Positions 12,048-47,059 of a stretch of 64,000 nt of DNA are shown here, piece after piece. A model generated the notes under the pieces. The model was not told where the DNA came from and made no database searches. It worked only from the letters and a program-made list of their open reading frames with translations. Source of the DNA: Bacteroidales bacterium (GTDB lineage: Bacteria > Bacteroidota > Bacteroidia > Bacteroidales > VadinHA17); NCBI GenBank assembly GCA_021738535.1, contig JAIPBU010000012.1, positions 7,095-71,094 on the forward strand. The letters are read 5' to 3'. Position 1 is the stretch's first letter. The number at the start of each line of letters is the position of its first letter. A program made the position numbers and the translations under genes.

Positions 12048-12051
12048 TATA

Positions 12052-18912: not shown

Positions 18913-19086
18913 AGATACAAGATACAAGTTTAAAGATACAATGAGTTGCAGGGATGTAATTATCTGCTTATTAAACTCATTTAAACTCATTCAAACTCAA
19001 TCAAGTGGGTTGTGCAGGCAGCAGGAAAAAGATATATGTTAGCAAATATACAAATCCACCTTAGCCCTTAGCCTTAGCCTTTAACC
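18913..19086. repeat. Intergenic cluster of three unrelated short direct-repeat families
   Basis: AGATACA x3 at 18913, 18920 and 18934. TTAAACTCAT x2 plus TCAAACTCAA at 18971-19000. TTAGCC x3 plus TTAACC at 19061-19086. Confidence 0.8.
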
Positions 19087-31503: not shown

Positions 31504-34500
31504 ATGATTGATAAAATAATAAAATTTTTCCTTGAGAATAAGCTGGTAACCTTTATTGTTCTTGCAGTTTTGCTCTTATGGGGTATTGCCAGCTCTCCAT
31601 TTAACTGGGATACCGGTATCCTGCCCGCAGACCCTGTTCCTGTTGATGCTATTCCCGATATCGGTGAAAACCAGCAGATAGTTTACACAGAATGGCCGGG
31701 AAGATCACCCCAGGATATAGAGGACCAGGTTTCTTACCCCCTGACAACGGCATTACTTGGTATCCCTGGTGTAAAAACAATACGAAGCAATTCAATATTT
31801 GGCTTGTCAAGTATATATTTAATATTCGAAGAAGATATTGAATTTTACTGGAGCAGGACACGTATACTTGAAAAGCTCAATTCACTACCACCCGGCACAT
31901 TGCCAGACGATGTTAATCCTTCGCTGGGACCTGATGCAACGGCTCTCGGACAGATATACTGGTATACTCTTGAGGGAAGGGATAAAAATGGTAATCCGGC
32001 CGGCGGATGGGATCCCCAGGAATTGAGAACTATACAGGATTTCCATGTCAGGTATGCATTGACATCTGCACCCGGGGTGGCTGAAGTAGCATCCATAGGT
32101 GGTTATATAAAGGAATACCAGGTTGATATTGATCCGGATGCCATGAGGGCCTATGGAGTTAATATTTCACAGATAATGAATGCTGTTAAAAACAGTAACC
32201 TGGACATTGGTGCCCGCACGCTTGAGTTTAACCGTGTTGAGTACCTCGTAAGGGCACTTGGTTATATCAGGAACCTGGGGGATCTTGAAAAAAGTGTTGT
32301 GGCGGTAAGGGATAATGTACCGGTGAGGATAAAGGATGTGGCAAGGGTTAATTACGGTCCCGGTACACGTCGCGGCGGTCTTGATAAAGGAGGTGCTGAA
32401 GCAGTTGGTGGTGTTGTGGTAGCACGTTACGGGGCCAACCCGCTTGAAACCATTGAGAATGTTAAGAAAAAGATAGAAGAAATAGAGCCCGGACTTCCGT
32501 CTAAAACACTTGATGACGGAAGTGTTTCCAAAGTAAAAATTGTTCCTTTCTACGACAGGACAGGCCTGATAAAAGAAACCCTTGGTACACTGGAGGAAGC
32601 AATATCATTGCAGTTGCTTATAAGTATACTGGTTATTATTGTTCTTGTACTTAACCTGAGGGCCTCTTTCCTGATCTCCGGACTCCTGCCTGCAGGCGTG
32701 CTTATGACTTTCATTATAATGAAGCAATTCGGCGTTGATGCCAATATTGTAGCATTGTCAGGTATTGCAATTTCAATTGGCGTTATGATTGATGTCGGGA
32801 TCGTGATCACTGAAAATATAATAAGGCATATTGAGCAGGAAAAGAATTCAGGCTCAGGATCCAGGAAACTGATTACAGTCATATATGACGGAACAAAGGA
32901 AGTGGCAGGAGCTGTTTTTACAGCTATAGCTACAACTATTGTCAGCTTCCTGCCCGTTTTTGCCATGGAGGCTGCCGAAGGAAAATTATTCAAGCCCCTT
33001 GCTTTTACAAAAACCTTTACTATGGTATCAGCATTGGTAATCGGGCTCATTATTATACCGGCACTGGCTCATCTGGTTTTCTCTCTTAAAACAGATAAAA
33101 GAAAATATTTAAAAGCACTGAATCTGATAGCTGCGCTGGCAGGTATATTGCTAGCCGTTTTTAGCGGTAATATGATTGCCCTGGCTATAACAGCCTTCGG
33201 GGTTAATAATTATTTATCAGGACGTTGGGTGCCAGGGAAAAAACAGTGGGTAAACTATATTAATATTATCATTACAGCTTTCGTGGTAATATATTTTCTA
33301 TCAAGGGTGTGGTTACCGCTGGGGGCTCAAAACTCACTGGCGGCTAACTTTATCTTTGTTATCTCAATTGTAGCTGTAATTCTGGCCGTTCTTTCAACAG
33401 TAGTGTATTATTACAGGAGGATATTGGGATGGACACTTAATAATAAATGGACTTTCCTTTCCATTCCATTGCTTATTATTCTTTTCGGTATTACAGCATG
33501 GCAGGGATTTGACAGGATATTCGGCTTTATGCCTGGTCTTGTGAAAGAAACCCGGCTTTACAGTTCACTCGATAAATCAATCCCGGGACTGGGCAGGGAA
33601 TTTATGCCCTCACTTGATGAAGGATCATTTCTCCTGATGCCTACAACAATGCCTCACTCAGGAATTCAGGAAAACCTTGAAGTGATAAGGTTACTTGATA
33701 AAAAAGTTAATTCAATACCCGAAGTAGATGTAGTGGTAGGTAAATGGGGACGGGTTAATTCGGCCCTGGATCCGGCACCGGTCTCAATGTATGAAAATGT
33801 AATTAACTACAAGCCTGAATATATTCTTGATGAAAAAGGACACAGGAGGAGGTTTAAAAAAGACCGGGACGGCGCTTTTGTTCTAAGTAACGGTAATACA
33901 TATAATCCCGGCAAAGATGCATTCAGAGTGATCCCGGACAGCCTTCTGATAAGTGATAAGAATGGCGATTATTTCAGGCAATGGCGTAAGGAGATTACAT
34001 CAGCAGATGATATCTGGAATGAGATAATTAGGGCTGCAAAAATACCAGGTCTTACCTCGGCACCTAAGCTGCAACCAATATCAACCAGGCTTGTTATGTT
34101 GCAGACTGGCATGAGGGCTCCCATGGGGATAAAGGTTTATGGGCCTGATCTTGAAAGCATTGAACAAACAGGGCTGGAAATGGAAAAGCTTCTTACGAAT
34201 GTGGAAGGAGTAAAGGGTAGTTCTGTTTTTGCCGACAGGGTAGTAGGTAAACCCTACCTTGAGATCGATATAGACCGTGATGCAGCAGCTCGCTATGGCT
34301 TGTCTGTTAAACAGCTCCAGACAGTAATAGGAGGGGCTATTGGTGGTATGAGATTAAGCACTACGGTTGAAGGCCGGGAAAGATTCCCCGTGAGGATGAG
34401 ATATGCACGTGAATTCAGGGATAACCCCGAGGACCTGGAAAAGATAATTATTCCTGCTTCAGACGGACAGCAGGTGCCCCTGGGTGAGCTTGTCAATATA

Positions 34501-35304
34501 AAATACACGAGGGGACCACAAATGATAAAAAGTGAAAATACTTTTCTTGTGTCCTACGTGATATTTGATAAAAAAGACGGCTATGCTGAAGTGGATGTAG
34601 TGGAAAACGCTGATAAATATCTTAATGAGATGATCGATGAAGGAAAATTCAGTCTCCCGGCAGGTGTCAGTTATACTTTCACGGGTAATTATGAGAACCA
34701 GGTACGTGCAACAAAGCGCCTGGCACTGGTGGTTCCTGTATCACTTATTGTTATATTCCTCATATTGTATTTCCAGTTCAGGTCTGTTGTGTCAACATCC
34801 TTTATATTCAGCGGTATACTGGTTGCTTTCTCAGGAGGTTTCATTATGTTGTGGTTATACGGGCAGCCATGGTTTATGGACGGAACACTGGCAGGCATGA
34901 GCCTGCGTGATTTATTCCAGGTAAAAACCATTAACATCAGTGTGGCTGTATGGGTTGGTTTTATTGCCCTGTTTGGTATTGCAACTGATGACGGAGTACT
35001 CATAAGCACCTATATCAGGCAGTCCATGGATAAATATAAACCGGTATCTGTTAAAGAATTACATAATGTGATAATTGAAGCAGGGGCTAAAAGAGTAAGG
35101 CCTGCCATGATGACCACGGCAACAACACTGATAGCACTGCTTCCGGTACTTACGTCAACCGGTAAGGGATCTGATATTATGGTGCCAATGTCAATACCCC
35201 TGTTCGGAGGGATGTTGATTGCGGTACTGACAATGTTCGTTGTGCCAGTATTATATGGTATGTGGCAGGAATCGATAATAAAAAAAGAACCAAAGAATAA
35301 ATAA
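31504..35304 (+). CDS. CusA/CzcA-family heavy-metal efflux RND transporter (long form, 1266 aa)
   Basis: RND architecture throughout. Characteristic blocks include IPDIGENQQIVYTEWPGRSPQDIEDQVSYPL, IALSGIAISIGVMIDVGIV and GIATDDGVL. Confidence 0.95.
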   Translation: MIDKIIKFFLENKLVTFIVLAVLLLWGIASSPFNWDTGILPADPVPVDAIPDIGENQQIVYTEWPGRSPQDIEDQVSYPLTTALLGIPGVKTIRSNSIFGLSSIYLIFEEDIEFYWSRTRILEKLNSLPPGTLPDDVNPSLGPDATALGQIYWYTLEGRDKNGNPAGGWDPQELRTIQDFHVRYALTSAPGVAEVASIGGYIKEYQVDIDPDAMRAYGVNISQIMNAVKNSNLDIGARTLEFNRVEYLVRALGYIRNLGDLEKSVVAVRDNVPVRIKDVARVNYGPGTRRGGLDKGGAEAVGGVVVARYGANPLETIENVKKKIEEIEPGLPSKTLDDGSVSKVKIVPFYDRTGLIKETLGTLEEAISLQLLISILVIIVLVLNLRASFLISGLLPAGVLMTFIIMKQFGVDANIVALSGIAISIGVMIDVGIVITENIIRHIEQEKNSGSGSRKLITVIYDGTKEVAGAVFTAIATTIVSFLPVFAMEAAEGKLFKPLAFTKTFTMVSALVIGLIIIPALAHLVFSLKTDKRKYLKALNLIAALAGILLAVFSGNMIALAITAFGVNNYLSGRWVPGKKQWVNYINIIITAFVVIYFLSRVWLPLGAQNSLAANFIFVISIVAVILAVLSTVVYYYRRILGWTLNNKWTFLSIPLLIILFGITAWQGFDRIFGFMPGLVKETRLYSSLDKSIPGLGREFMPSLDEGSFLLMPTTMPHSGIQENLEVIRLLDKKVNSIPEVDVVVGKWGRVNSALDPAPVSMYENVINYKPEYILDEKGHRRRFKKDRDGAFVLSNGNTYNPGKDAFRVIPDSLLISDKNGDYFRQWRKEITSADDIWNEIIRAAKIPGLTSAPKLQPISTRLVMLQTGMRAPMGIKVYGPDLESIEQTGLEMEKLLTNVEGVKGSSVFADRVVGKPYLEIDIDRDAAARYGLSVKQLQTVIGGAIGGMRLSTTVEGRERFPVRMRYAREFRDNPEDLEKIIIPASDGQQVPLGELVNIKYTRGPQMIKSENTFLVSYVIFDKKDGYAEVDVVENADKYLNEMIDEGKFSLPAGVSYTFTGNYENQVRATKRLALVVPVSLIVIFLILYFQFRSVVSTSFIFSGILVAFSGGFIMLWLYGQPWFMDGTLAGMSLRDLFQVKTINISVAVWVGFIALFGIATDDGVLISTYIRQSMDKYKPVSVKELHNVIIEAGAKRVRPAMMTTATTLIALLPVLTSTGKGSDIMVPMSIPLFGGMLIAVLTMFVVPVLYGMWQESIIKKEPKNK

Positions 35305-35307
35305 ACA

Positions 35308-36540
35308 ATGAAGATCATAAAATACATAACATTCATATTTTTCATTGCTGGCTCTTCATTGCTTTCGGGGCAGGAAGATCTTAATAATTACCTCCGGGAA
35401 GCTGCTGAGAACAATCCCGGTCTGAAAGCCCGGTTCAATGAATATATGGCAGCACTTGAAAAGGTGCCACAGGCAGGATCATTGCCTGATCCTCAACTTG
35501 CTTTTTCATGGTTTATCAGCCCCGTTGAAACAAGAATGGGACCTCAGCAACTAAGGCTTTCATTATCGCAGTTTTTTCCATGGTTCGGTACTCTACGGGA
35601 CAGGGAGAATGCAGCTATAAAAAGCGCAAGGGCCAGGTATGAATTATTTGAAGAAAGCAAGTCAGCTCTTTATAAAGATATCAAAGCTCTTTATTTTAAC
35701 CTGTATTTCTTTGATAGTTCAACGGATATTACCCGTGAGAATATCCAGCTGCTGGAAGTAATTAGGAAGTTAGCTGAAGTTAAGCTTGAATCCGGTCTCG
35801 TTTCGGCTCTTGATGAATACAGGATCAGTATGGAAATCAATGACCTTGAGAACCAGCTTTTGCTTCTGAACGATAAATATTTAAGCCTTGAAACAGAGTT
35901 CAGAAACCTTGTGGGGAGTGATAATATAGGGCAAATCAGCATCCCTGATTCTCTATGGCTTGATGATTTCTCCCTTGGCAGGATGCAGGCAATGGATTCT
36001 GTACTGTCAGGTAATCACAGCCTCTTATCACTCGAATTTCGTAAAGCTGCCATTAACTATGAAAAGGATGCAGCGGAAAAAGCCGGTTTACCGGATTTCA
36101 GGATTGGATTAGACTATATTGTTACAGGCCGGGGTGATGACAATCTCTCCGGGAAAGATGCTTTTGCTTTCCCCACAATAGGTATATCGATTCCAATATA
36201 CAGGAATAAATACCGTGCTATGGTTAAGGAAGCAGGATACCGTGAGGAGGCGAGTATAAATGAGGCAGAAGACAGGGTTAATGCCCTTGAAACATTATTT
36301 GAAAACGCCTGGCGCGATTACCGTGATGCAGACAGGAGGGTTAAATTAAACGAAGAACAGGCCAGGCTCGCTGAGAACTCACTAAGGTTACTTGAAGAAC
36401 AATACAGCACAGCAAGCATAAACCTCGAAGAGATACTGAGAATGGAGCGAAGGTTATTACAATATAAACTTGAATATGAAAAAGCTAAGGCTGACAAACA
36501 GGCAGCCATAGCATTTATTTATTATCTGATGGGTAAATAA
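35308..36540 (+). CDS. TolC-family outer-membrane efflux protein
   Basis: Signal peptide. It has NNPGLKA and two long coiled-coil repeats typical of OEP proteins, and starts 4 nt after the pump gene. Confidence 0.85.
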   Translation: MKIIKYITFIFFIAGSSLLSGQEDLNNYLREAAENNPGLKARFNEYMAALEKVPQAGSLPDPQLAFSWFISPVETRMGPQQLRLSLSQFFPWFGTLRDRENAAIKSARARYELFEESKSALYKDIKALYFNLYFFDSSTDITRENIQLLEVIRKLAEVKLESGLVSALDEYRISMEINDLENQLLLLNDKYLSLETEFRNLVGSDNIGQISIPDSLWLDDFSLGRMQAMDSVLSGNHSLLSLEFRKAAINYEKDAAEKAGLPDFRIGLDYIVTGRGDDNLSGKDAFAFPTIGISIPIYRNKYRAMVKEAGYREEASINEAEDRVNALETLFENAWRDYRDADRRVKLNEEQARLAENSLRLLEEQYSTASINLEEILRMERRLLQYKLEYEKAKADKQAAIAFIYYLMGK

Positions 36541-36552
36541 AGAATTAATGTT

Positions 36553-38352
36553 ATGAAAAATATTATAAATAAAATAAAAGAAAATTATCTGATACTTATC
36601 GTGGTCCTGTTAACAGGGCTTTCGATGGGATATGCATTCTTTAATGATAATGACCGCAAAGACCAGGTATCAGAAGAACTGAGCGGCCATGAAGGCCACG
36701 ATCATGAAGGTGAAGACCCTTCAACATGGACTTGTTCTATGCATCCTCAGATTAAGCAGGAAGAACCCGGCGACTGTCCTATCTGCGGGATGGACCTTAT
36801 CCCACTGTCTGCACTGGATGAAGGCAGTGGTGAAGAATATGCCGGTGCGGTAATGATGAGCAGTGAAGCTGCCCGACTGGCTGATATACAGACCAGCGTT
36901 GTCAGAAGAGCTAAACCGGTTAAAACCATTTACCTGCAAGGGAAAGTAGAGACTGATGAAAGTGAAATGGCAGAGATAACCTCACGCTTTGGAGGCCGGA
37001 TTGAAAAACTGCATATCAGTTTTACCGGTGAGCAGGTAAATAAAGGGGAAAAACTGGCTACCCTGTATTCTCCGGAGCTTGTTAATGCCCAGCGAGAGCT
37101 GCTAGAAGCTTATACCATGAAGGACAGCCACCCGGCAATCTACAGGGCTGCAAGATCAAAGCTTAAGTTATGGGATCTGAGTGATAAACAGATCAACAGG
37201 ATCGAGCAGCAATCTGAACCAGAATTATACTTTGATATATTGTCGCCTATTTCAGGCACGGTCATGCAAAGACATGTGTCTGCCGGGGATTATGTAAAGA
37301 CGGGAGAATCTATGTTTATGGTCTCCGATCTAAGCCGTTTATGGGTGGTCTTTGATGCATACGAGGACGACCTGCCATGGATAAGGGAAGGAGACAGTAT
37401 TGAGTTTACAGTCCGTTCACTGCCAGGGAAAACCTTTTTGTCTGAGGTGGACTTTATTGATCCTTTCATTAACAGTAAAACCAGAACGGCAGGACTGAGG
37501 GTGGAAGTAGATAACAGGCAGGGAGAACTCAAACCCGGTATGTTTGCGGGAGCTAAGCTCTATTCAACCACAGCGGATAACAGTGATGAACTTATGATTC
37601 GCCGTTCAGCAATCCTGTGGACAGGTAAGAGATCTGTGGTATATGTTAAGGTGGCGGACAGCGAATCACCTGCTTTTACTTACAGGGAGATAGAAACCGG
37701 TGCCAGGGCAGGAGAGTATTACCTTGTAGCCTCCGGGCTGGAAGAAGGTGAAGAGATTGCCACCAACGGCGTCTTTAAGATCGATGCAGCTGCCCAGCTG
37801 GAAGGAAAAAAAAGCATGATGAACCCCGGTGGTGGAAAAATATCAACCGGGCATGATCATGGAAATATGGAAATGGGTTCGGAAGACAGACAACAGGATA
37901 CCCCTTCACTTTTCAGGGACCAGTTAACTGCATTTTATGATGCTTATGTAAGTATGAAAGATGCTTTAGTGGAAACGGATGCAGGCAAGGTTAAATCAAG
38001 GTCCCGGGATGTTATTAATGCCCTGGAAGATGTCGATATGGCCTTACTGGCAGGTGATGCCCATATGCAATGGATGGATCAGCTTGAGGAACTTGAGAAA
38101 ACAATCAGGGAAATAATTGACTCAGATGATATAGAAAAGCAAAGAAAAGCCTTCCTGGAATTGAACAATACTTTCTACCGGACTGTTAAGACTTTTGGGT
38201 TGAACCATGATACAGTCTATTACCAGTACTGTCCGATGGCCAACAATGACCAGGGAGGTTACTGGTTTAGCAATGAAGAAGAAATAAGAAACCCGTATTT
38301 CGGGGATATGATGCTTAAATGCGGAGAAGTCCGCGAAATGATAGTTAATTGA
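36553..38352 (+). CDS. RND periplasmic adaptor with an N-terminal metal-binding domain and a C-terminal DUF3347-like domain
   Basis: HEGHDHEGED then CSMHPQI..PGDCPICGMDL. The barrel-sandwich/lipoyl core has GRIEKL..GEQVNKGEKLATLYSPEL. The C-terminus has YCPMANNDQGGYWFS. Confidence 0.85.
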   Translation: MKNIINKIKENYLILIVVLLTGLSMGYAFFNDNDRKDQVSEELSGHEGHDHEGEDPSTWTCSMHPQIKQEEPGDCPICGMDLIPLSALDEGSGEEYAGAVMMSSEAARLADIQTSVVRRAKPVKTIYLQGKVETDESEMAEITSRFGGRIEKLHISFTGEQVNKGEKLATLYSPELVNAQRELLEAYTMKDSHPAIYRAARSKLKLWDLSDKQINRIEQQSEPELYFDILSPISGTVMQRHVSAGDYVKTGESMFMVSDLSRLWVVFDAYEDDLPWIREGDSIEFTVRSLPGKTFLSEVDFIDPFINSKTRTAGLRVEVDNRQGELKPGMFAGAKLYSTTADNSDELMIRRSAILWTGKRSVVYVKVADSESPAFTYREIETGARAGEYYLVASGLEEGEEIATNGVFKIDAAAQLEGKKSMMNPGGGKISTGHDHGNMEMGSEDRQQDTPSLFRDQLTAFYDAYVSMKDALVETDAGKVKSRSRDVINALEDVDMALLAGDAHMQWMDQLEELEKTIREIIDSDDIEKQRKAFLELNNTFYRTVKTFGLNHDTVYYQYCPMANNDQGGYWFSNEEEIRNPYFGDMMLKCGEVREMIVN

Positions 38353-38389
38353 GGCTAAGGCTAAGGTTATATATATGGGATTACCTTGT

Positions 38390-38930
38390 AACCGCCGGAG
38401 GCGGTAAATAACAATAGCCCCGGTTTCACACGGGGGTAAGAGTATGATAAATGAATGTTCAATAACCGCCGGAGGCGGTAAATAACAATAGCCCCGGTTT
38501 CACACGGGGGTAAAGAGTATGATAAATGAATGTTCAATAACCGCCGGAGGCGGTAAATAGCAATAGCCCCGGTTTCACACGGGGGTAAAGAGTATGATAA
38601 ATGAATGTTCAATAACCGCCGGAGGCGGTAAATAACAATAGCCCCGGTTTCACACGGGGGTAAGAGTATGATAAATGAATGTTCAATAACCGCCGGAGGC
38701 GGTAAATAACAATAGCCCCGGTTTCACCCGGGGGTAAGAGTATGATAAATGAATGTTCAATAACCGCCGGAGGCGGTAAATAACAATAGCCCCGGTTTCA
38801 CCCGGGGGTAAAGAGTATGATAAATGAATGTTCAATAACCGCCGGAGGCGGTAAATAACAATAGCCCCGGTTTCACCCGGGGGTAAATGTAATAGCAATG
38901 TAAATAAACAGCCCCGGAGGGGGCGAATAG
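38390..38930. repeat. Tandem array of 7 copies of a 74/75-bp unit plus a degenerate terminal remnant; two GC hairpins per unit
   Basis: Units start at 38390, 38464, 38539, 38614, 38688, 38762 and 38837. The unit is AACCGCCGGAGGCGGTAAATAACAATAGCCCCGGTTTCACACGGGGGTAAGAGTATGATAAATGAATGTTCAAT. The remnant hairpin GCCCC-GGAG-GGGGC lies at 38911-38924. Confidence 0.95.
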
Positions 38931-38958
38931 TATTATTATTAACCAAAAACAGATTATC

Positions 38959-39327
38959 ATGAAAAAACAACTATTAACACTTGCAGTTCTCTTAACAGTA
39001 ACTGCATCCGCTGCTTTCGGTCAGTGTGAAACCGATAAGAAAAAAGAGGATAATAAATTGTATGTTGCAGGTGAATGCGGTATGTGCGAGGCACGTATTG
39101 AAAAAGCTGCAAAATCAGTTGAAGGCGTTACCATGGCCGACTGGGACAAAGAAACAAAGATGCTTGCTGTAAACTTCAGCTGTGCAAATCCTGATGTAAA
39201 GTCAGTTCATAAAGCTGTAGCGGCTGTTGGACACGACACAAAGGAAGTTAAGGCAGATGATAAAGTATACAGTGAACTGCCCGGATGCTGCAAATATGAG
39301 CGTATTAAGATTGCAGAAAAACAGTAA
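38959..39327 (+). CDS. Secreted heavy-metal-associated (HMA) domain protein
   Basis: Signal peptide, a CxxC metal site in GECGMCEARIEKA with the ferredoxin-like HMA pattern, and a C-terminal PGCCKYE. Confidence 0.8.
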   Translation: MKKQLLTLAVLLTVTASAAFGQCETDKKKEDNKLYVAGECGMCEARIEKAAKSVEGVTMADWDKETKMLAVNFSCANPDVKSVHKAVAAVGHDTKEVKADDKVYSELPGCCKYERIKIAEKQ

Positions 39328-39364
39328 ATCATTTACTGACCGGGAAGGTCAGTTGAAAATTAAT

Positions 39365-39394
39365 GCGGGTAGGATTACTTACCCGTATTTTTTT
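39365..39394 (+). terminator. Intrinsic terminator after the HMA gene
   Basis: CGGGTA-N8-TACCCG followed by TATTTTTTT. It is preceded by a second hairpin, CTGACC-GGGAA-GGTCAG, at 39336-39352. Confidence 0.7.
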
Positions 39395-39426
39395 GTAAAT
39401 TTCAGAATTATCAACAACCGGCAACT

Positions 39427-40035
39427 ATGATCGAAGAAGTTTTTGGAAAGGAATTATCGGATGAAATACTTAATTTCCCCATAGCAGAGATACCAGCTGA
39501 AAGTGTTATTCTGCGTGAGGGTGCATATATTAAAGAGATCCCGATTGTAACAAAAGGATCTGTGAAAGTCCGTAAGATTGATCCTGGAGGAAAAGAAATT
39601 ACACTGTACAGGATAAGTCCGGGTGAGAGCTGCATACTCTCTATAACCTCTTGCCTGAATAATAAGCCAAGTAATGCCGAAGCTGTTATTGAAGAGCCTT
39701 CACAAATCATACTTATTCCTTCAGAAAAAGTCAGAGAGTGGATGGATAAACACAGTCTCTGGAGGAAATTTGTCATGAAATTATATTATGACAGGCTTGA
39801 ACAGGTATTGCAGCTGGTTGATGCAATAGCTTTTAAACAGGTTGATAGACGCGTTACAGAAAGGCTGAAGAAACTCCGTGAAACACATGGAGACAATATA
39901 AAGATAACTCACCAGGAACTTGCCAATGACATAGGAACCGCAAGAGAAGTGGTATCCAGGCTGCTTAAGAACCTGGAAGCATCGGGGGTAATAAGGCTGG
40001 AAAGGGGCAAAATTAAAATTATCCAGGCTTTGTGA
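39427..40035 (+). CDS. Crp/Fnr-family transcriptional regulator
   Basis: cNMP-binding-like beta-roll (G..I.EIPIV.KGSVKV) and a C-terminal HTH, THQELANDIGTAREVVSRLLKNLE. Confidence 0.85.
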   Translation: MIEEVFGKELSDEILNFPIAEIPAESVILREGAYIKEIPIVTKGSVKVRKIDPGGKEITLYRISPGESCILSITSCLNNKPSNAEAVIEEPSQIILIPSEKVREWMDKHSLWRKFVMKLYYDRLEQVLQLVDAIAFKQVDRRVTERLKKLRETHGDNIKITHQELANDIGTAREVVSRLLKNLEASGVIRLERGKIKIIQAL

Positions 40036-40104
40036 CCCTGGTTACATAATAAAAGACGTCTGTGTCCTATATTTGCCTAGTAATAATCAATAAATCATGT
40101 ACAA

Positions 40105-40290
40105 ATGAAAGCGAATATAGGAAAAATCGATCGTGCTATCAGAATAATTCTTGGCCTTCTTATAGGATTGGCAGGTTTATACTTTGAAAGCTGGCTTGGC
40201 CTGCTGGGCTTAATCCCTCTTTTGACGGCTTTTATAAGATGGTGTCCTCTGTATCTGTCTTTAGGTATCAGGACAAATAGAAAGAATTAA
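40105..40290 (+). CDS. DUF2892 (YgaP-like) small membrane protein
   Basis: IDRAIRIILGL...RWCPLY pattern with two TM segments. Confidence 0.7.
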   Translation: MKANIGKIDRAIRIILGLLIGLAGLYFESWLGLLGLIPLLTAFIRWCPLYLSLGIRTNRKN

Positions 40291-40310
40291 TCACTTTAAA
40301 ATCTATTAAT

Positions 40311-40781
40311 ATGAAAAATATATTAAGAATTAGCTTGATCCTTGCAGTAATACTATTTTCAGTATCCTGCAATAAGTCAGAGACATACCCCCAGGGTGGA
40401 GATGTTGATGATGCTCAAGTAAATCTACAGAAAAATTGGGTTTTAAATACTTACTTCCGTAATGATGTAAACGAAACAGAGCAGCTTATTATATCCTCCT
40501 ACTCAGAAGAATATACGGCCGATGGTGTTTACAGCAGATCTTACATTAAGGCTGACGCGAGTGAGGTATCGGAGGACGGAGCATATAGTTTCTCAGATAA
40601 CATGCATGAACTGAGAATATCTGATGTAAGCAGTATATCTGACTTTTCAGAAAACAATTCCACACTCTCATCTTCTGCTTACAAGATTTTGAAACTCACC
40701 GAATCTGAATTATGGTATTCTTATTTAAATGGAGGTGATAAACACGAGTTCAGGTTCTCAATAAACGGAGAGATAAAATAG
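40311..40781 (+). CDS. Hypothetical lipoprotein
   Basis: Lipobox LFSVSC. No recognisable family. Confidence 0.5.
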   Translation: MKNILRISLILAVILFSVSCNKSETYPQGGDVDDAQVNLQKNWVLNTYFRNDVNETEQLIISSYSEEYTADGVYSRSYIKADASEVSEDGAYSFSDNMHELRISDVSSISDFSENNSTLSSSAYKILKLTESELWYSYLNGGDKHEFRFSINGEIK

Positions 40782-40795
40782 TGTAATAATTAAAT

Positions 40796-40827
40796 AAAGG
40801 GCTTTCGTTTTAATAAGAAAGCCCTTT
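40796..40827. terminator. Bidirectional hairpin terminator between convergent genes
   Basis: AAAGGGCTTTC-N10-GAAAGCCCTTT, flanked by A-run and T-run. It overlaps the last codons of the minus-strand gene. Confidence 0.6.
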
Positions 40828-41406
40828 ATTTTTCTTTAGAACACTAATAGAGTTTATTAATTCCGTAATTCTAATAATATCCTCAGTAATTGCATGCACT
40901 GATATGGTTGCACCTGAGATTGCATCAATATTCTTATTTACCCTCATTTCATTGCTGCCATTATAGCCGGAAAATTGCTTAAGCCAGCCCCTGGATGATA
41001 TTTCATACCCGTGAGTTGCCTGGTAATTATAGACTTTGACCATGACAAGCTCCTTGAGCTTATTATAAATAATAAAATAATCGAAATATTCAGTTGATGC
41101 ACTCTCTTTACCTGTTCTGTCTGTATTAGCTATTGAACACCCACCGGCATGACATGTAAAAACCCTTCCGATATACAGGTACCCGGTTTTATTATCAGGG
41201 TTTTCAATCATGAAAAACTTTCCATTGGAATGTATTTCAGAATTTATTTTATTCATTCTTATTTCTTTCAGGTTATCCGGCTCGCCTAAATCGGCCTTTC
41301 TAAGGGCGCGGATTAGTGTCTTAGACCTGTAGTCAGGATAAGACTGACCTGATAATTGATCTGTAAAGACGAATAGTACAACAAAAAGCAGCAATAATGA
41401 TTTCAT
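40810..41406 (-). CDS. Secreted FMN_bind-domain protein
   Basis: Signal peptide from ATG 41406; the track ORF extends upstream into the porin gene. The C-terminal NIDAISGATISVHAI matches the FMN_bind (S/T)GAT flavinylation-type motif. Confidence 0.65.
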   Translation of the reverse strand: MKSLLLLFVVLFVFTDQLSGQSYPDYRSKTLIRALRKADLGEPDNLKEIRMNKINSEIHSNGKFFMIENPDNKTGYLYIGRVFTCHAGGCSIANTDRTGKESASTEYFDYFIIYNKLKELVMVKVYNYQATHGYEISSRGWLKQFSGYNGSNEMRVNKNIDAISGATISVHAITEDIIRITELINSISVLKKNKGLSY

Positions 41407-41416
41407 TTTTTTCTTT

Positions 41417-42622
41417 TTAAAACATAATGCCAAAACCTGCATTAAGCGTAGCCATATACTTGTCATGGCTACCATTTTTTACCAGCTGAATATCAGTCTT
41501 TATTACAGCACCTTTCTCAAGGAAGAGAGACAGTCCTGTAGTAATAACCGTATTATGATATTCAGGATTTCTTTGTAAATCACCGGCAACACTTTTATGA
41601 GTATCATATGATGAGTACCTAATAAAAGGTATCAGCTGCATTGTAGTTTCAGCCTGCCTGAGTACATTGTATCCGAGGTCGATATAAAACCCTGCCATTG
41701 AGCTTCCCAGGTCACCTCCGTCTTTGTCTGCGGTAAACTGGTTGTACTGGTTGGTATTACTGAGTTTTGTGTAATATAACTGAGCCTTTACCTGTAATCC
41801 CTGGTAACTGTATCGGGCATCAGCTCCCAGCATGCTTATATTAACCACAGAAGAATCAGCAATTGCCATGGCAACTTCATCGTCTTTTCTTATACCGTCA
41901 TACAGATTGCTCTGGGTTTTGCCATAATAAGCTGACAGACCAAGGTTGAGCCGCCTGAGGCCAAAATACTCGATCCTCCCACTCAGGTTGGGTGAGCTGA
42001 TAAATGATTCTGCCGCTTTCTGCCTGCCACCTCTGAGCCCACTTGAACCACCTATCCGGGCCTGGTTATCAAAACTTTTGAAACCATTCATAAGGTAAGC
42101 CTGGTATTTAACAGAAACGGGAAGAATAATACCACTTACGCCTATCCCGATTTCTCTCCATGTAGAAGGCACAATATATTTATCAAGCAGAGGTCTTTCA
42201 ACACCGTTGAAATTCGTTGGTTCATGGTACTCGTTTGTCAGTCCCATAGGTGTTAATAGTAATCCGCCCCTTATGTTGGCATAATTGTTAAGCTTGTATT
42301 GGATAAAGGCCTGTTCCACATATACTTCTTTAACATGCTCAAACTCCAGCTCAGTAATAAACTGGGTTCTGTTGTTAAACTGATATCCCAGCATCATAAT
42401 GAACCGGTGAACATCCAGTTTACCATTGTAGCGGGTATCCTTATTAATACTTTGATTATAGTGTACTCCTCCGTAACCGCCTATTTTCAGGTTACCATCT
42501 GTCAGCAGTAATCTTTCGGCACTGTTAAAGTAGAGATTGCCAGGTATACTGTCAGCTTCCTGAGCTGTGGCAGTTATTGCAGCAGCGAAGAAAATTATGC
42601 TGATTGTTATTCTTTTTATCAT
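41417..42622 (-). CDS. Outer-membrane porin-like beta-barrel protein
   Basis: Signal peptide ending TATAQE. It is strand-rich with Gly/Tyr and has a C-terminal aromatic residue (GFGIMF). Confidence 0.55.
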   Translation of the reverse strand: MIKRITISIIFFAAAITATAQEADSIPGNLYFNSAERLLLTDGNLKIGGYGGVHYNQSINKDTRYNGKLDVHRFIMMLGYQFNNRTQFITELEFEHVKEVYVEQAFIQYKLNNYANIRGGLLLTPMGLTNEYHEPTNFNGVERPLLDKYIVPSTWREIGIGVSGIILPVSVKYQAYLMNGFKSFDNQARIGGSSGLRGGRQKAAESFISSPNLSGRIEYFGLRRLNLGLSAYYGKTQSNLYDGIRKDDEVAMAIADSSVVNISMLGADARYSYQGLQVKAQLYYTKLSNTNQYNQFTADKDGGDLGSSMAGFYIDLGYNVLRQAETTMQLIPFIRYSSYDTHKSVAGDLQRNPEYHNTVITTGLSLFLEKGAVIKTDIQLVKNGSHDKYMATLNAGFGIMF

Positions 42623-42768
42623 AAGTTTGAGTTTTTGTATTTGTTATTAATGTTTATCAGCAGTAAAAATAGGGGGATAGGTTTGTGTCTGCAATCACGT
42701 GAAATGGTGGTTTTATATTTATATATCCCAACAGAAGGGGGGTCAGAATCTCTTTCAACCTGAACAAG

Positions 42769-45204
42769 TCAGGAAAAATTCAATAAAAGTGAATGGACCT
42801 GGTTGATAATGAAAACAGTTACCCAGGCAAAAACGAGGGGGTATACAGCAGAAAATATTGTCCATTTATATTTTGCGGTTTCTTTTTTAATGGCCAGCAG
42901 GGCACCCATGCAGGGAAAATAAAGGAGTACAAAAACAAGGAACCCGAAATAGCTTATAAGAGGTGTTTCACTGGCAATACGCGAATTTCTGAGTTTCTCC
43001 ACCAGTGTAATACCATCTTCTCCGGAGCTTGCTCCTGCCTGGTAAAGAATACCCATGGAGCTGACAACAACTTCCTTCGCCATAATGCCTGTAAGTATGC
43101 TTACTGACATCCTCCAGTCAAAACCAAGTGGTTCAAATACCGGCTGCACCGCTTTGCCAATTCGACTGATATATGACTGCTCAAGCATTGCCGAGGCCTT
43201 CATTGATTCATATCTTTCCGCATCGGGGGGATTCCCGCTTATCAGATTGTCATATTTATTTATGATCTCCCTGTCGCGTGGGAAGTAACCAAGAGCCCAT
43301 ATTACTATTGATGCAAAAAGAATAATGGTTCCCATCTTTTTAAGGAAGTGTGATGTCTTGAACCAGGTATGCTTAAATACTGACCGCATTGTTGGTACAC
43401 GATAGGGTGGAAGCTCCATTACAAAAGGAGATTCGGTTTTACGAAATATGGTTTTATTAAGAACCAGGGCTGTAAGGAGCGCTGCCAGAATACCTATTGC
43501 ATATATTGCAAACAACATTAATGATTCGTAGTGCGGGAAAAAAGCACTGATAAAGAGAACATAAACAGGGAGTCTTGCACTGCACGACATAAAAGGGGTA
43601 ATAAACATGGTGATGAGCCTGTCCCTTTTGCTGTCTATTGTTCTTGTAGCCATAATGGCCGGTACGTTGCAGCCAAATCCCATCAGCAGGGGTATAAATG
43701 ATTTGCCATGCAGCCCCGCCCTGTGCATTACCTTATCCATCAGGAAAGCAGTGCGTGCCATATAGCCTGAGTCCTCCAGCAGTGAAATAAAGGCAAAAAG
43801 GATCATTATATTTGGCAGGAATACCATTACCCCACCTACACCGCCTATTACACCGTCAGACAACAGCCTGCCGGCAATGCCCTGGCCAGGGCTTGCTGAT
43901 ATTGCCCCGCCAAGCCATCGGAAAAGACTCTCTATCCAGCCCATCGGTATTTCACCAAGCCTGAATGTGGAAAAGAAAATAAACCATATTATCCCGAAAA
44001 ACACCGGTAAACCCCATATCTTATGGGTAAGCACCCGGTCAATGCTTTGTGAAATGCTGATAGTTTGTTTCCTGGCTGGTATATAAGTCTCTGCCAGGGC
44101 CCCTTCAATAAAAGCATATCTCATGTTAACTATCTGGTTGCTGATATTGTTCTTAATCAGCGACTCAACATTCTTCCTCCTGGTGGCAGCAAAGTCTTTT
44201 ACCCTCTTCATGATTGTGGCCGGTATTTGAGGTAAGGCAGATGTGTCATCCTCCAGAAACCGTATTGCAGTCAACCTGCTGATATTGTTTTCCAATTCCC
44301 CGCTCTCAGCTGTCATGGAAATGACCTTTTCTATGGAATCATCTATCTCCTGACCGTAATTAAGCCTCGCCTGCCTGACCCTTTCATCTCTTCCCTCATA
44401 TACCTTTATGATGGTACTGAAAAGGTCTTTCAGCCCTACGCCTCTTGATCCCACGGTGGGGACGATGGGTATGCCAAGCATTTTTCCAAGAACTTCATGA
44501 TCCAGTCTCCCCTTGCTTTTTTCCAGTTCATCATACATGTTAAGGGCGGCAACAGTAATGATACCGCTATCTATAAGCTGCGTTGTCAGAAAAAGATTTC
44601 TTTCAAGGTTACCGGCATCAATAACATTCAGGACAATGTCAGGTTTGTTGTAAAGCAGGTAGTCAGTAACAAACATCTCTTCAGGTGAGTATGCCTTTAA
44701 TGAATAAGTGCCCGGAAGGTCTATAAGATTTATACGGTAATTGTCTATGTCTAGCCTGGCTTCTCGCGCGGCAACAGTAACCCCGGCGTAGTTGGCTACC
44801 CTTTCCCTTGACCGTGTGGCGTAGTTATATATTGTTGTTTTTCCACAATTTGGATTACCTATAAGAGCAACATTAATGGTACGTGACCGACCATGACGAG
44901 GTCTTGTTCTTCTCATCCTGTTTTTTTGGCCATGACCATGCTGATGGCGGAAACCGTTGTGTGCTTCCTTAACTGTCTTATCAGTCCTGGCAATATTTAT
45001 TGCTGCAGCATCTGCTTTGCGGATGGTAACTTTATATCCCATGATCTCATACTCAACAGGATCTCTGAGAGGAGCAGCTTTTATTGCCTTTACTTTCTGA
45101 CCTCTAATAAAACCAAGTTCATTTAGCCTGTCCTTTATACCGCCGTTACCGGAAATACCGGTAATAAATGCTTCCTGTCCTGTAATTAAGTCAGATAAAT
45201 TCAT
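42769..45204 (-). CDS. feoB: Ferrous iron transporter, FeoA-FeoB fusion
   Basis: The N-terminal FeoA SH3-like domain has ITGISG..RLNELGFIRGQKVK. A His/Arg-rich linker follows, then the G-domain P-loop GNPNCGKTT and DLPGTYSL, then the polytopic membrane domain. Confidence 0.95.
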   Translation of the reverse strand: MNLSDLITGQEAFITGISGNGGIKDRLNELGFIRGQKVKAIKAAPLRDPVEYEIMGYKVTIRKADAAAINIARTDKTVKEAHNGFRHQHGHGQKNRMRRTRPRHGRSRTINVALIGNPNCGKTTIYNYATRSRERVANYAGVTVAAREARLDIDNYRINLIDLPGTYSLKAYSPEEMFVTDYLLYNKPDIVLNVIDAGNLERNLFLTTQLIDSGIITVAALNMYDELEKSKGRLDHEVLGKMLGIPIVPTVGSRGVGLKDLFSTIIKVYEGRDERVRQARLNYGQEIDDSIEKVISMTAESGELENNISRLTAIRFLEDDTSALPQIPATIMKRVKDFAATRRKNVESLIKNNISNQIVNMRYAFIEGALAETYIPARKQTISISQSIDRVLTHKIWGLPVFFGIIWFIFFSTFRLGEIPMGWIESLFRWLGGAISASPGQGIAGRLLSDGVIGGVGGVMVFLPNIMILFAFISLLEDSGYMARTAFLMDKVMHRAGLHGKSFIPLLMGFGCNVPAIMATRTIDSKRDRLITMFITPFMSCSARLPVYVLFISAFFPHYESLMLFAIYAIGILAALLTALVLNKTIFRKTESPFVMELPPYRVPTMRSVFKHTWFKTSHFLKKMGTIILFASIVIWALGYFPRDREIINKYDNLISGNPPDAERYESMKASAMLEQSYISRIGKAVQPVFEPLGFDWRMSVSILTGIMAKEVVVSSMGILYQAGASSGEDGITLVEKLRNSRIASETPLISYFGFLVFVLLYFPCMGALLAIKKETAKYKWTIFSAVYPLVFAWVTVFIINQVHSLLLNFS

Positions 45205-45207
45205 TAC

Positions 45208-45243
45208 TTGTGAACCTTATGCGGTAAATATTGAGGTTCACAA
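45208..45243 (-). promoter_or_regulatory. 10-bp inverted repeat TTGTGAACCT-N16-AGGTTCACAA ending 4 nt upstream of the feoAB start codon
   Basis: Read directly. It could be a 5'-leader hairpin or an operator. Confidence 0.4.
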
Positions 45244-45329
45244 AACTACTGATACATATTATAGCAGGGAATAGCTTATAGTTGGGGTTTTTTAGCCTGA
45301 TCTCATAATAATAGGGGATGATAATGAAA

Positions 45330-45914
45330 TCATTTTTCACTTAAAGGTATCAGCTTGTTTGAGATCGCATAAATTGTTAAGCCCGGGAGGCTTTTAATAC
45401 CCGTTTTTTCAGAAATATTCTTGCGGTGACTGATAACCGTATGTATGCTTATATTAAGTTTATCTGCTATTTCCTTGTTTGACAGTCCTCCAACGAGCTG
45501 TATTAATATATCATTCTCCCTGTCGCTCAATTTGCTGCGGCTAAGTTCTTTCTTATTATTTTGGGAATGATCAATTTTATTTCTCAGGACATCGGATGTA
45601 TCGGTAATCGAAATTGATGAGTCAAACTCGTTAAGCAGCCTGTTATCAGTTAAAGAATACAGCAGGGCGATAAAATAAATAGCGGGATGACTATTCCTGA
45701 ATTTTCGCATTTGGTTTACCCTGTTAATAATATTCTCCGGGTTAAGTACTACAATATTTATTTCAGCTTTGACCGTCAGTATATCGAGCTCCTCAATATC
45801 ATCGATCCTGTACAGGAAATAGCGTTCACTTTGCCTGTGCAACAGGTTACTTATTCCTTCATAGATAATGTCAGGGTGACCGATCAGGGCTATGTTTATC
45901 CTTTCCTTTTTCAT
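45330..45914 (-). CDS. LuxR-family regulator with a degenerate (pseudo-)receiver domain
   Basis: The LuxR HTH is LSDRENDILIQLVGGLSNKEIADKLNISIHTVISHRKNI. In the receiver-like N-terminus IALIGHPD replaces the DD pocket, and IVVLNPEN places Asn where the phospho-Asp is expected. Confidence 0.75.
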   Translation of the reverse strand: MKKERINIALIGHPDIIYEGISNLLHRQSERYFLYRIDDIEELDILTVKAEINIVVLNPENIINRVNQMRKFRNSHPAIYFIALLYSLTDNRLLNEFDSSISITDTSDVLRNKIDHSQNNKKELSRSKLSDRENDILIQLVGGLSNKEIADKLNISIHTVISHRKNISEKTGIKSLPGLTIYAISNKLIPLSEK

Positions 45915-46618
45915 TTGCCCTGATTTTCAATTCTCTGAACCAGTGGAAGCAGTATTTCTTCTTCTATACGAGAATGGATATTGAGGTCATATTCAAGTTC
46001 GAAAAGGCTTAGCAGAAGTCGTCTCCTCAATGGTAAGTCATTTTCAATTGAAATATGCTTAAGCAGGAGGTTTTTAAGGTCTGTTAGCTTGGTTTCTATA
46101 TCGGTATGATGATCGCGGTATTCGTTTGCAGAGAAATTCTCTGTTTCAGATTTTGTTTTATCTCTGCTTAAACGGCAAAAATAAGGGAAGGCTGTGTCAT
46201 CCTCATAGTCAAGGTGATCTAATACCTCTATGAAATAATCGTTGAAAAATTTGCTAATAAGGTCAATATCCTGAGAAGGATGCCTTTTTTCAAGGTCAGA
46301 GATATATTTCTGTATCTCAGGGTACTTGTCATTTTTATAATAATTATGACTGTTTTTCAGAAACGTTATTAACAGGGATATGTCATTAACATGTTCCAGC
46401 TCGCCCTTTGCAGGGTAGAACCCATTATAAATGTTTGCTATTAGCAGAACCACATTTAAATCCAGTTTATGGTCCCGGCAGATCTCATCGACAGTTTTAT
46501 CTTTTACCACAAAATCAATCTTAAGGTGTTCCAGGAATAACAATAGCATCGGGTTTTCATCTATAAGACCCTGCAGTTTAACATCCTTCTTTATATGTGT
46601 TTTATGCGTTTGGTACAT
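45911..46618 (-). CDS. Hemerythrin-like (HHE cation-binding, RIC-like) protein
   Basis: Two H-x2-3-E(E/D)-x2-(F/L)(F/L)P boxes: DHLDYEDDTAFPYF and HSRIEEEILLPLV. It has an ATGA overlap with the downstream LuxR gene. Confidence 0.6.
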   Translation of the reverse strand: MYQTHKTHIKKDVKLQGLIDENPMLLLFLEHLKIDFVVKDKTVDEICRDHKLDLNVVLLIANIYNGFYPAKGELEHVNDISLLITFLKNSHNYYKNDKYPEIQKYISDLEKRHPSQDIDLISKFFNDYFIEVLDHLDYEDDTAFPYFCRLSRDKTKSETENFSANEYRDHHTDIETKLTDLKNLLLKHISIENDLPLRRRLLLSLFELEYDLNIHSRIEEEILLPLVQRIENQGK

Positions 46619-46675
46619 CAGGTTTTTTTTACAAAAATATATATTATTTTAGAACCGGATTAAAAGTTTGTATTT

Positions 46676-47059
46676 ATGGGTTCACTGGGGTTCTTTTCAA
46701 CCTTATTTATTTCATTGGCTCTTCTTTTTTATAGTCTTGGTGTATGGGCAGAAAGGATAGTAAAATATCTCAAAACATGGCATGTCGTTGTATTCTGGAT
46801 TGGTTTTACCTTCGATGTTACCGGCACTTTTCTTATGCATCTTATGGCAGATGGACCCTTTAACCTGCTGGAATCGCATACCCTCACCGGACAGATTGCA
46901 TTATGGCTGATGTTGGCTCATGCCAGCTGGGCAACGATTGTTATTTGGAAGAACAAGCAAGCACTCAGACTCAAATTTCACCGATATTCCCTGTTCGTAT
47001 GGCTGATCTGGTTAATCCCATATTTCGGGGGAATGGCTATGGCGATGGCGATGAAATAA
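46676..47059 (+). CDS. Small integral membrane protein (4 TM; HsmA/TIGR03987-like)
   Basis: 127 aa with four hydrophobic segments. The family assignment is from memory only. Confidence 0.5.
   Translation: MGSLGFFSTLFISLALLFYSLGVWAERIVKYLKTWHVVVFWIGFTFDVTGTFLMHLMADGPFNLLESHTLTGQIALWLMLAHASWATIVIWKNKQALRLKFHRYSLFVWLIWLIPYFGGMAMAMAMK

Follow-up and report, generated by a model that had tools for sequence, protein, structure and literature searches.

The best available analogy for the repeat array described here, as its closest analogue and nearest functional precedent, is REP325 of Escherichia coli, an array of the bacterial interspersed mosaic element (BIME)-2 type that lies between yjdM and yjdN and is built from repetitive extragenic palindromic (REP) sequences, which are present genome-wide in hundreds of copies. 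REP325 stabilises the upstream transcript, lowers downstream expression or read-through about 8-10-fold and gives rise to a ladder of hairpin-ended RNAs (bioRxiv 10.64898/2026.03.23.713779). The array under study is found in a 64,000-nt stretch of DNA from a Bacteroidales bacterium (contig JAIPBU010000012.1; the whole stretch is called the window, positions are numbered on it, and the loci of relatives are labelled L003-L037), in the 606-nt spacer between the gene for a CusB-like periplasmic adaptor (cusB) and a gene for a protein with a heavy-metal-associated (HMA) domain. Like REP325, it is a head-to-tail array of double hairpins in the spacer of an operon; REP325 has a period of 100, 5.8 copies, 96% matches and a 657-nt spacer, against 74/75, 6.7, 98% and 606 nt in the window. 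However, the REPs of REP325 carry the GTAG tag and the two REPs of each unit are inverted copies (GTAGGCCGGATAAGG...GGCA, then GCCTGATG...AGGCCTAC), whereas the two hairpins of the window array are unrelated to each other, stand in direct orientation and are untagged. In addition, an array of the window type was found at one junction only, and its core is conserved across saturated divergence. Judging from the sequence comparison, the array is a genuine and old feature that is fixed at a single junction across a clade with saturated synonymous sites, and its 45-nt core is under strong purifying constraint while the tails are not. By analogy, we infer that it acts like a REP325/BIME-2 cluster and evolves like a minisatellite (72-75-nt units, 3 versus 6.7 copies, turnover of unit types), and our tentative reading, to which we give a little less than an even chance, is that it is a cis-acting structured spacer in the operon mRNA, a stabiliser or attenuator that would set the ratio of pump to chaperone.

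The mycobacterial interspersed repetitive units (MIRUs) of Mycobacterium resemble this array in having units of 40-100 bp, which are intergenic within operons, lie in one orientation to transcription and differ in copy number between strains. MIRUs occupy about 40 loci per genome and carry small open reading frames (ORFs) bridging the flanking genes, whereas the window array is a single locus with no conserved bridging ORF; a 13-codon mini-ORF is found only in units of the window type (W-type), has no counterpart in the J and K unit types and stops short of the HMA start codon. MIRUs have been described as minisatellites with copy-number variation (PMC3635867). The window array also has the features of a minisatellite or variable-number tandem repeat, since its units are joined head to tail without unique spacers and its copy number differs between lineages. 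Within the Bacteroidales, BrickBuilt of Porphyromonas gingivalis (PMC4596501) is likewise a spacer-less and strictly intergenic tandem repeat that was proposed to modulate neighbouring transcription, as is proposed for the window array. However, BrickBuilt has a 23-nt unit, leader and tail subunits with inverted-repeat ends, 19 copies per genome and promoters, none of which is seen in the window array.

The 34-nt head of the repeat unit was matched at 38390, 38464, 38539, 38614, 38688, 38762 and 38837 and had no match in 100 shuffles; these seven starts and the periods between them (74, 75, 75, 74, 74 and 75) are those given in the original prediction, which had been made from the letters alone. 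Tandem Repeats Finder reports 38389-38887 with a period of 75, 6.7 copies, 98% matches and a score of 949, where 6.7 is the count as assembled in the window contig. The array and its terminal remnant are composed as follows.

38391-38837, plus strand: six full repeat units (W1-W6) of 74/75 nt, from repeat finding, folding and unit alignment
W1 38391-38464, W2 38465-38539, W3 38540-38614, W4 38615-38688, W5 38689-38762 and W6 38763-38837, all plus strand
38838-38909, plus strand: seventh unit of 72 nt with the same core and an older-type tail, GTAAATGTAATAGCAATGTAAATAAAC, from unit alignment
38910-38925, plus strand: degenerate copy of hairpin 1, AGCCCC-GGA(G)-GGGGCG, from folding and covariance model R1 (14.9 bits)

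The tandem array is thus real, but it is not seven equal copies filling the whole spacer, as had been stated: there are six full units and one of 72 nt, and the spacer, which is mostly filled by the array (38391-38909) and the degenerate hairpin, has at its two ends 37 nt (38353-38389) and 33 nt (38926-38958) that do not belong to the array. Each unit consists of a 45-nt core (ACCGCCGGAGGCGGT-AAATARCAATA-GCCCCGGTTTCACMCGGGG) and a 29/30-nt AT-rich tail. The core begins with hairpin 1, ACCGCC-GGA-GGCGGT (15 nt, 6 bp with a GGA loop), continues with an 11-nt A-rich linker and ends with hairpin 2, CCCCG(G)-loop-(C)CGGGG (18-21 nt, 5-6 bp). Both GC-rich stem-loops, which the original prediction had pointed out, are predicted by folding in every unit, at -22 to -24 kcal/mol per unit (z about -2.5), and 3 of 200 shuffles fold as stably as a real unit. 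The units of the window differ at exactly the three sites described there, namely A/C in hairpin 2 (units 1-4 versus units 5-7), TAAG/TAAAG, and one A>G in unit 3. Likewise, the remnant hairpin GCCCC-GGAG-GGGGC is present at 38911-38924, 34 nt ahead of the ATG at 38959. The tail of the seventh unit shares 74% identity with the internal-unit tail of the 72-nt arrays of relatives (L028), and by this resemblance the window array arose as a newer type of unit that expanded on the upstream side of an older unit at its end.

The array is non-coding. All sense frames carry stops in every unit, while on the minus strand one frame is open through every unit, for 81 and 95 codons in the window and for 107 codons in L028, where the period of 72 equals 24 codons. 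Taken at face value, this frame would be a gene for a protein of 24/25-residue repeats (...PGETGAIAIYRLRR...). However, the ORFs begin with TTG within, and antisense to, the start of the HMA gene, and in the window the mixture of 74- and 75-nt units interrupts the frame. The variants of the core alter the predicted residues (AIV/AIA, PPC/PPG, PGE/PGI; linker A/G, hairpin-2 A/C and loop changes), the parts encoded by the tails are unrelated between unit types, and the translated open frames of the array have no match among 5.8 billion protein clusters, so that a minus-strand repeat protein is effectively refuted. The 1-nt indel had earlier been taken to make these ORFs artefacts; the array is indeed non-coding, but the indel alone is no proof, since the frame stays open for 107 codons in the relative. 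That the array is not a clustered regularly interspaced short palindromic repeat (CRISPR) locus was seen correctly: the segments between the cores are near-identical within the array, there are no unique spacers, and no cas domain was found in the window with Pfam. Integron attC sites, iterons and tandem riboswitches were also considered and rejected, there being no cassettes, no rep gene and no Rfam match. With Rfam cmscan at E values up to 10, the region 37800-39500 gave only sub-threshold chance matches, the best within the array scoring 19.9 bits against a gathering score of 72. Three units had no match in plasmids and phages by BLAST in distant mode, and a scan of viral contigs with the two-hairpin pattern returned 0 matches. 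The statement that no described element has this unit therefore holds for Rfam, plasmids, phages and predicted proteins.

The array was found at the same cusB-HMA junction in six other assemblies, which come from different samples and assemblers.

L028 (JGI): complete array of three 72-nt units
L029 (ENA): at least 2.3 units
L032 (ENA, SPAdes): at least 2.4 units, of the window's own 75-nt type
L033/L035 (Logan ERR12082721): both array ends present
L034 (GCA_964603975.1): at least 1.9 units
L037 (GCA_018224495.1, annotated as Bacteroidales bacterium): period 74, at least 1.3 units

Two of these seven arrays are complete, that of the window with 6.7 units and that of L028 with 3, and the other five end at a contig edge after at least 1.3 to at least 2.4 units; the related arrays have periods of 72 and 74. 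The copy number thus differs between lineages, as had been supposed. The breaks of five of the seven assemblies inside the array could raise the suspicion that the array or its copy number is an artefact of assembly, and the AA/AAA difference between units is typical of homopolymer errors. In the k=31 Logan assembly of the same organism, contigs end on both sides of the array; these Logan contigs come from a run that is possibly the source of the window's own assembly. On the other hand, multi-unit arrays stand at the same junction in the six other assemblies, L028 spans a complete array of three units, and owing to the internal variants the longest exact repeat inside the window array is 115 nt, which makes the assembly path unique at k of about 117 or more. 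An artefact is therefore very improbable.

The borders of the array bear on how it came to lie where it does. In L028, L034 and L037 the insertion is at the identical cusB codon (after ...ETI(T/I), followed by ACCGCC...), and cusB now terminates within unit 1 as ...TAGGGK*. At the insertion point, five additional bases are present in L035 and in the window, and the window alone has a further 39-nt insert, within which the present stop codon of its cusB-like gene (TGA, 38350-38352) sits by the junction alignment. The following segments flank the window array.

38340-38378, plus strand: 39-nt insert GATAGTTAATTGAGGCTAAGGCTAAGGTTATATATATGG, without counterpart in the other array-bearing loci, from the junction alignment
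38379-38390, plus strand: former 3' end of cusB, GATTACCTTGTA, from the junction alignment
38926-38958, plus strand: relic of the ancestral cusB 3' end and of the original short spacer, from comparison with relatives

In L035 the counterpart of GATTACCTTGTA still holds the last cusB codons with their stop codon and overlaps the beginning of unit 1. Wherever an array reaches the HMA start, it is followed on its right side by what is left of the former cusB end and of the former spacer, and the 24 nt ahead of the HMA ATG (ATTATTAACCAAAAACAGATTATC, 38935-38958) are identical in all array-bearing loci that reach this start; they are likely the translation-initiation region of the HMA gene. Relatives without the array have cusB-HMA gaps of 12 nt (L003, L011), 47 nt (L007) and 103 nt (L030), with HMA proteins 73-82% identical. 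These short gaps indicate that the tight operon junction is ancestral and that the array sits inside it. One carrier, L037, has a cusB only 71% identical to that of the window.

Two side observations concern this junction. In L030/L031, which lack the array, the cusB end has a local duplication of its own at 3360-3500 (AAAAATGATGAAGGGGATTTT / AAAAATGATGGAGGGGATTTG), and the 103-nt spacer there contains two unrelated hairpins, from which the junction seems prone to gaining stem-loops. The 39-nt insert of the window carries an (AGGCTA)n-AGG motif followed by T...TATAT, which recurs on the minus strand at 19066-19079, within a different intergenic region of the window, and, in the form GGCTGAGGCTAAGG, right after the HMA stop in a relative (L011-L014, 3892-3905); going by these recurrences, the sequence bearing the motif is perhaps a dispersed element of small size. 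Close to the second (AGGCTA)n motif of the window, at a distance of about 60 nt, three tandem copies of TTAAACTCAT lie at 18971-19004, in the intergenic DNA ahead of a gene for a fasciclin-domain protein.

The conservation of the core was measured against the four-fold-degenerate sites of cusB as a neutral yardstick, whose identity to the window is 82% in L035, 72% in L028 and 35% in L037 (61/175, saturated). The core types of the window and L028 differ at 1 of 45 positions, and the core differs from that of L037 at 2-3 of 45. At a neutral identity of 72%, the probability of at most one difference (window versus L028) is 5.7e-6, and at 35% (L037) the probability of at least 43 identical positions out of 45 is 9e-18. 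In the 16 units compared, which come from five lineages, variation of the core is confined to seven positions: the loop of hairpin 1 has one, the linker two, the loop of hairpin 2 three and the optional sixth pair of hairpin 2 one. None of the 22 firmly paired positions varies (P = 0.005, or P = 0.03 if the sixth pair is counted as stem). The AT-rich tails fall into three types; that of the window and L032 is 67% identical to that of L037, and the L028 type is about 50-58% identical to both others, barely above chance for AT-rich 30-mers. Synonymous differences directly adjoin the array on both sides in a reading of the sequences, and a recent transfer of the region therefore fails to account for the core identity. 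Recent spread would have left the tails as alike as the cores, yet the tails have diverged.

A covariation test on the 16 units had nothing to score, since no stem position varies. Other evidence on the stem-loops comes from the terminal remnant, a diverged copy of hairpin 1 in which four pairs are kept in register, one of them through a G-C to C-G double change, and in which a shifted register gives five pairs. Between the window and L028/L032 the remnant has G-C versus G-U, which the sense RNA tolerates and which is an A-C mismatch on the other strand; this is one event. In L033 (60-97), a 38-nt segment, CATTGTGCGACGTAGTCCCGAGGCAATGGGACGAAGTC, which is itself a hairpin and has no match in the window or in the other retrieved loci, lies in the remnant loop with GGA duplicated on both sides and the closing stem intact. 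Such an insertion would ruin a double-stranded operator, not a stem-loop. The loop of hairpin 1 is GGA in 15 of the 16 tabulated units and in the units of L037, and GGAG in the remnant; unit 1 of L034 has GAA.

As the stems, the linker and the loops are conserved in sequence, beyond the potential for pairing, an array of binding sites for a sequence-specific protein has to be weighed. The sites could be on RNA, as a sponge or scaffold like CsrB/RsmZ or as the target of a dedicated RNase or RNA-binding protein, or on DNA, where a regulator or nucleoid protein would bind the 6-3-6 and 6-6-6 inverted repeats. The near-constant GGA loop speaks for such sites, and it is characteristic of sponge RNAs and of operator arrays that one site recurs many times. 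CsrB and RsmZ likewise have many short hairpins with a GGA loop. They are independent small RNA genes with their own promoter and terminator and act through CsrA/RsmA, whereas the window array is embedded in an operon, has no promoter motif within it and is accompanied by no CsrA domain encoded in the window. Moreover, Bacteroides has been reported to lack both CsrA and Hfq (PMC13370968; PMC7366714). In no lineage is a candidate binder encoded beside the array, the constant neighbours being only the cus genes and the HMA gene. The nested insertion in L033 alters the spacing of the arms while the stem is kept, and the GAA loop of unit 1 in L034 also counts against a fixed site, so that we consider an array of this kind unlikely. 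Operators for metal repressors of the CsoR, CueR or CopY type, judged by their consensus sites, were rejected: neither the spacing nor the sequence fits, a regulator of this kind is not encoded next to the array, and the insertion in L033 preserves the stem.

The relation of the array to mobile palindromes was examined on the features of REPs and on dispersal. Like the GTAG/CGTC REP families (PMC3733652), the units are made of short GC-rich palindromes that form stem-loops, hairpin 1 with its 15 nt being shorter than typical REPs. The tag is neither GTAG nor CGTC; hairpin 2 is preceded in all units by ATAG, which has three of the four bases of GTAG, and hairpin 1 by AATA, GAAC or AATC. The inverted pairing of BIMEs is not seen either: the two stems differ, and in W-type units both are flanked by 5'-AATA and 3'-TAA(A) in the same orientation. 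In the available DNA (64 kb of the genome, and the two-hairpin pattern in the collections), no dispersed family was detectable and no REP-associated tyrosine transposase (RAYT) was seen. Within the 64-kb window, regular expressions found no other copy of either hairpin, and covariance model R1, run with the filters off, returned only the seven units and the remnant. Among 241 million JGI metagenome records, the two-hairpin core occurs at one place only, which is the same cusB-HMA junction (L028); the scan was for the double hairpin, single hairpins not being included. Among 185,579 species genomes, a collection without the window's own genome, a pattern of exact hairpin 1 and the stems of hairpin 2 gave 13 single chance-like matches, almost all of them in coding DNA of high-GC genomes, and 13 is the number estimated beforehand for chance in high-GC DNA. 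No domain of a transposase, RAYT or integrase was found by Pfam in the about 55 large ORFs of the window. With regard to miniature inverted-repeat transposable elements (MITEs), the array has an imperfect match to the cusB 3' end on either side, apart from the palindromes it shows no clear terminal inverted repeats, and there are no further copies in the 64 kb. The earlier idea of a BIME/REP-like block of stem-loops acting on the transcript hence stands as an analogy, with REP325 as the best one, but not as membership of that family, for which tag, inverted pair and dispersal are lacking. An ordinary genome-wide REP without positional preference, which the original prediction had raised against itself, is not favoured by the absence of other copies in 64 kb and by the occupation of the same junction in six other assemblies.

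Similar designs exist in other bacteria. In an uncultured Balneolaceae metagenome-assembled genome (MAG; CALJMB010000223.1, L027 2311-2548), an intergenic 70-nt unit is repeated twice in tandem with CAATAGCCCCGG-ATGCAAT-CCGGGG and a second hairpin, AACTCC-GAA/AAA-GGAGTT, though its resemblance to the window unit is subject to ascertainment bias, as the locus was retrieved through the two-hairpin search pattern itself. About 100 nt further, an inverted copy has the same hairpin after CCGCCGGAGGCGG. In the Thermoanaerobaculia MAG DASQGS01, three dispersed double hairpins of the form GCCGCCGGAGGCGGC-(G/A)AAAG(A/G)(A/G)TT(T/C)AG-CCCCCGGCGCCAGCCGGGGG are present (L022 3580-3625, L023 262-307 and L024 80-125), two of the three with common flanks; from their sequence they look like a genome-specific repeat family of similar design.

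These similar elements belong to the case for a selfish REP- or MITE-like palindromic element, which would have been inserted once at the 3' end of cusB and amplified locally without benefit to the host, its conservation being due to recognition by a transposase or RAYT or to self-correction of the palindromes. The Balneolaceae locus combines TAG-CCCCGG...CCGGGG and a hairpin with a GGA/GAA triloop in two tandem units and an inverted copy, and the Thermoanaerobaculia copies are dispersed. The ATAG before hairpin 2 would fit with this origin, and so would the cusB 3'-end sequence that flanks the array on both sides like a target duplication, though the match is imperfect, and the further small hairpin that entered the remnant loop of L033 with GGA duplicated. 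Conservation in REPs is at the level of sequence rather than structure, as it is here, and REP clusters are known to arise when singletons or dimers are reiterated along with the DNA beside them (PMC3733652). However, a density of REPs like that of E. coli would give about eight copies in 64 kb, where no other hairpin copy was found. The two-hairpin core stands at one junction in the JGI records and has only chance-like single matches in the species genomes, the window encodes none of the enzymes that would move it, and transposition cannot keep a single-locus element constant. The tails diverge while the core does not, contrary to recent spread. Taken together, we regard a purely selfish element as a minority possibility.

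The genes of this copper/silver efflux operon (cusA-OEP-cusB-HMA) and the first terminator after it are located as follows.

31504-35304, plus strand: gene for a CusA/CzcA-like resistance-nodulation-division (RND) pump, 1266 aa, the first large gene of the operon (Pfam ACR_tran, E 2.7e-173)
35308-36540, plus strand: gene for an outer-membrane efflux protein, 410 aa (Pfam OEP, E 9.6e-42)
36553-38352, plus strand: gene for the CusB-like periplasmic adaptor, 599 aa (Pfam HlyD_D23, HMBD and DUF3347)
38959-39327, plus strand: HMA-domain gene, 122 aa, with signal peptide and GMCxxC motif (Pfam HMA, 804 homologues, synteny)
39362-39394, plus strand: first canonical sense-strand intrinsic terminator after the operon, with a 12-bp stem and a T-run (terminator scan)

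By synteny, cusB is followed in all relatives by the HMA gene, whose product is a putative periplasmic metallochaperone. A consensus scan called no sense-strand intrinsic terminator between cusB and HMA, whereas the minus strand passes the same scan: all seven copies of hairpin 2 and the remnant are flagged as terminator-like there, for example CCCCGGGTGAAACCGGGG followed by CTATTGTTAT. The array could accordingly be read as an orientation-specific insulator, a set of minus-strand intrinsic terminators that would stop antisense read-through, for instance from convergent arsenic-resistance genes, from entering the cus genes while sense transcription passes. On the minus strand a U-rich tract comes after every hairpin, the conserved A-rich linker being the U-tract there, and in relatives a minus-strand ACR3/SBF operon converges on HMA. 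However, the array lies upstream of HMA and not between HMA and the convergent genes, which leaves HMA exposed, and a canonical bidirectional terminator is already present at 39362-39389. The U-tracts are interrupted, terminators normally drift in sequence, and the eight flagged sites are copies of one sequence and so make up one observation. We consider an insulator improbable.

The array contains the Bacteroidetes -7 motif TAnnTTTG on neither strand; this is a weak negative, as the 620 nt upstream of cusA lack the motif too. A sigma-70-type promoter scan found 16 sites against 12.5 expected in shuffles, with a consensus that is inappropriate for the phylum. Separate small RNA genes, one of the earlier suggestions, are not supported by an array with no -7 motif on either strand and no sense-strand terminator. 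With no sense terminator between cusB and HMA, no -7 motif and a preserved initiation region of HMA, the array is probably transcribed within the operon mRNA and would act at the level of RNA. The sense strand has more G than C (C/G 0.72) and A-rich linkers, which would make the array a poor loading site for Rho.

The history of the array and its proposed action as a structured spacer of the operon mRNA may be pictured as follows. In the ancestor of one uncultured Bacteroidales clade, a hairpin-bearing segment entered the last codons of cusB, and head-to-tail reiteration by slippage or unequal exchange has since produced arrays of 3 to about 7 units, each 72-75 nt long, whose tail types have turned over. 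Each unit would place on the mRNA two stable GC stem-loops separated by A/U-rich single strands; the stem-loops may block 3'-to-5' decay and act as leaky roadblocks or attenuators, and the A/U-rich linkers may be entry sites for endonucleases. The pump genes and the HMA chaperone gene, which are coupled in relatives with the 12-nt spacer, would be uncoupled by the array, and the ratio of pump to chaperone would be set by it and be adjustable through the copy number by slippage. Several points weigh against this picture. A barrier to decay needs only a stable stem, so that compensatory drift would be expected, and instead it is the sequence of the stems, of the linker and of most loop positions that is conserved; such conservation without covariation points to a sequence-specific partner which is absent from the model. 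The strand of action is supported by a single G-C/G-U difference. On the sense strand the hairpins have A-rich sequence after them and no U-tract, so that intrinsic termination is not expected to bring about attenuation. Furthermore, as only two arrays are complete, tuning by copy number rests on 3 versus 6.7 units.

Several observations concern the neighbourhood of the operon. About 7 kb of the window (about 39400-46650) are missing from relatives, in which HMA is adjoined by a 125-aa membrane ORF and/or a convergent ACR3(SBF)-arsenic gene set. The extra region encodes a Crp-family regulator, two unknown proteins, an FMN_bind protein, a FeoA-FeoB fusion, a LuxR-type protein and a hemerythrin-domain protein; a 127-aa ORF at 46676-47059 has 77% identity to an ORF of L007. 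The HMA gene of the window has a four-fold identity of 51-60% to L032/L033, dropping towards the 3' end, against 82% between the cus genes of the window and L035. This far greater divergence of HMA suggests, on sequence grounds, a recombination breakpoint in or just after HMA, beside the 7-kb extra region. Unrelated to the array, the minus strand at 4404-9062 encodes a 1552-aa protein with SBP_bac_3, Reg_prop propeller repeats and a SpoIIE phosphatase domain, and near it (also at 10905-12062, minus strand) a caspase-domain (Peptidase_C14) protein and a Fib_succ_major protein are encoded.

The anatomy of the array is familiar; what is unusual is that near-invariance across saturated divergence goes together with a single locus. 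A bolder proposal, which we hold to be rather unlikely, is that the 45-nt double hairpin is a new, sequence-specifically recognised regulatory RNA module of the copper/silver efflux operons of this clade, read by an unnamed protein, RNase or RNA, and that its tandem copies form a heritable, slippage-adjustable dial of the ratio of pump to metallochaperone. If this were true, such a sequence-read module would be the counterpart of REP clusters at a single locus, selected by the host and independent of any transposase. On the practical side, the repeat breaks short-read assemblies of these MAGs inside a metal-resistance operon. Whether REP/BIME arrays inside operons are junk or host regulators has long been disputed, and in E. 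coli their conservation is confounded by ongoing mobilisation. An array at a single junction, with a near-invariant core and neither a dispersed family nor a transposase in the available DNA, would be a cleaner natural test of selection at the level of the host. It is, at the same time, a candidate for a new cis-regulatory RNA in a phylum whose post-transcriptional control, with no Hfq or CsrA, is poorly known.

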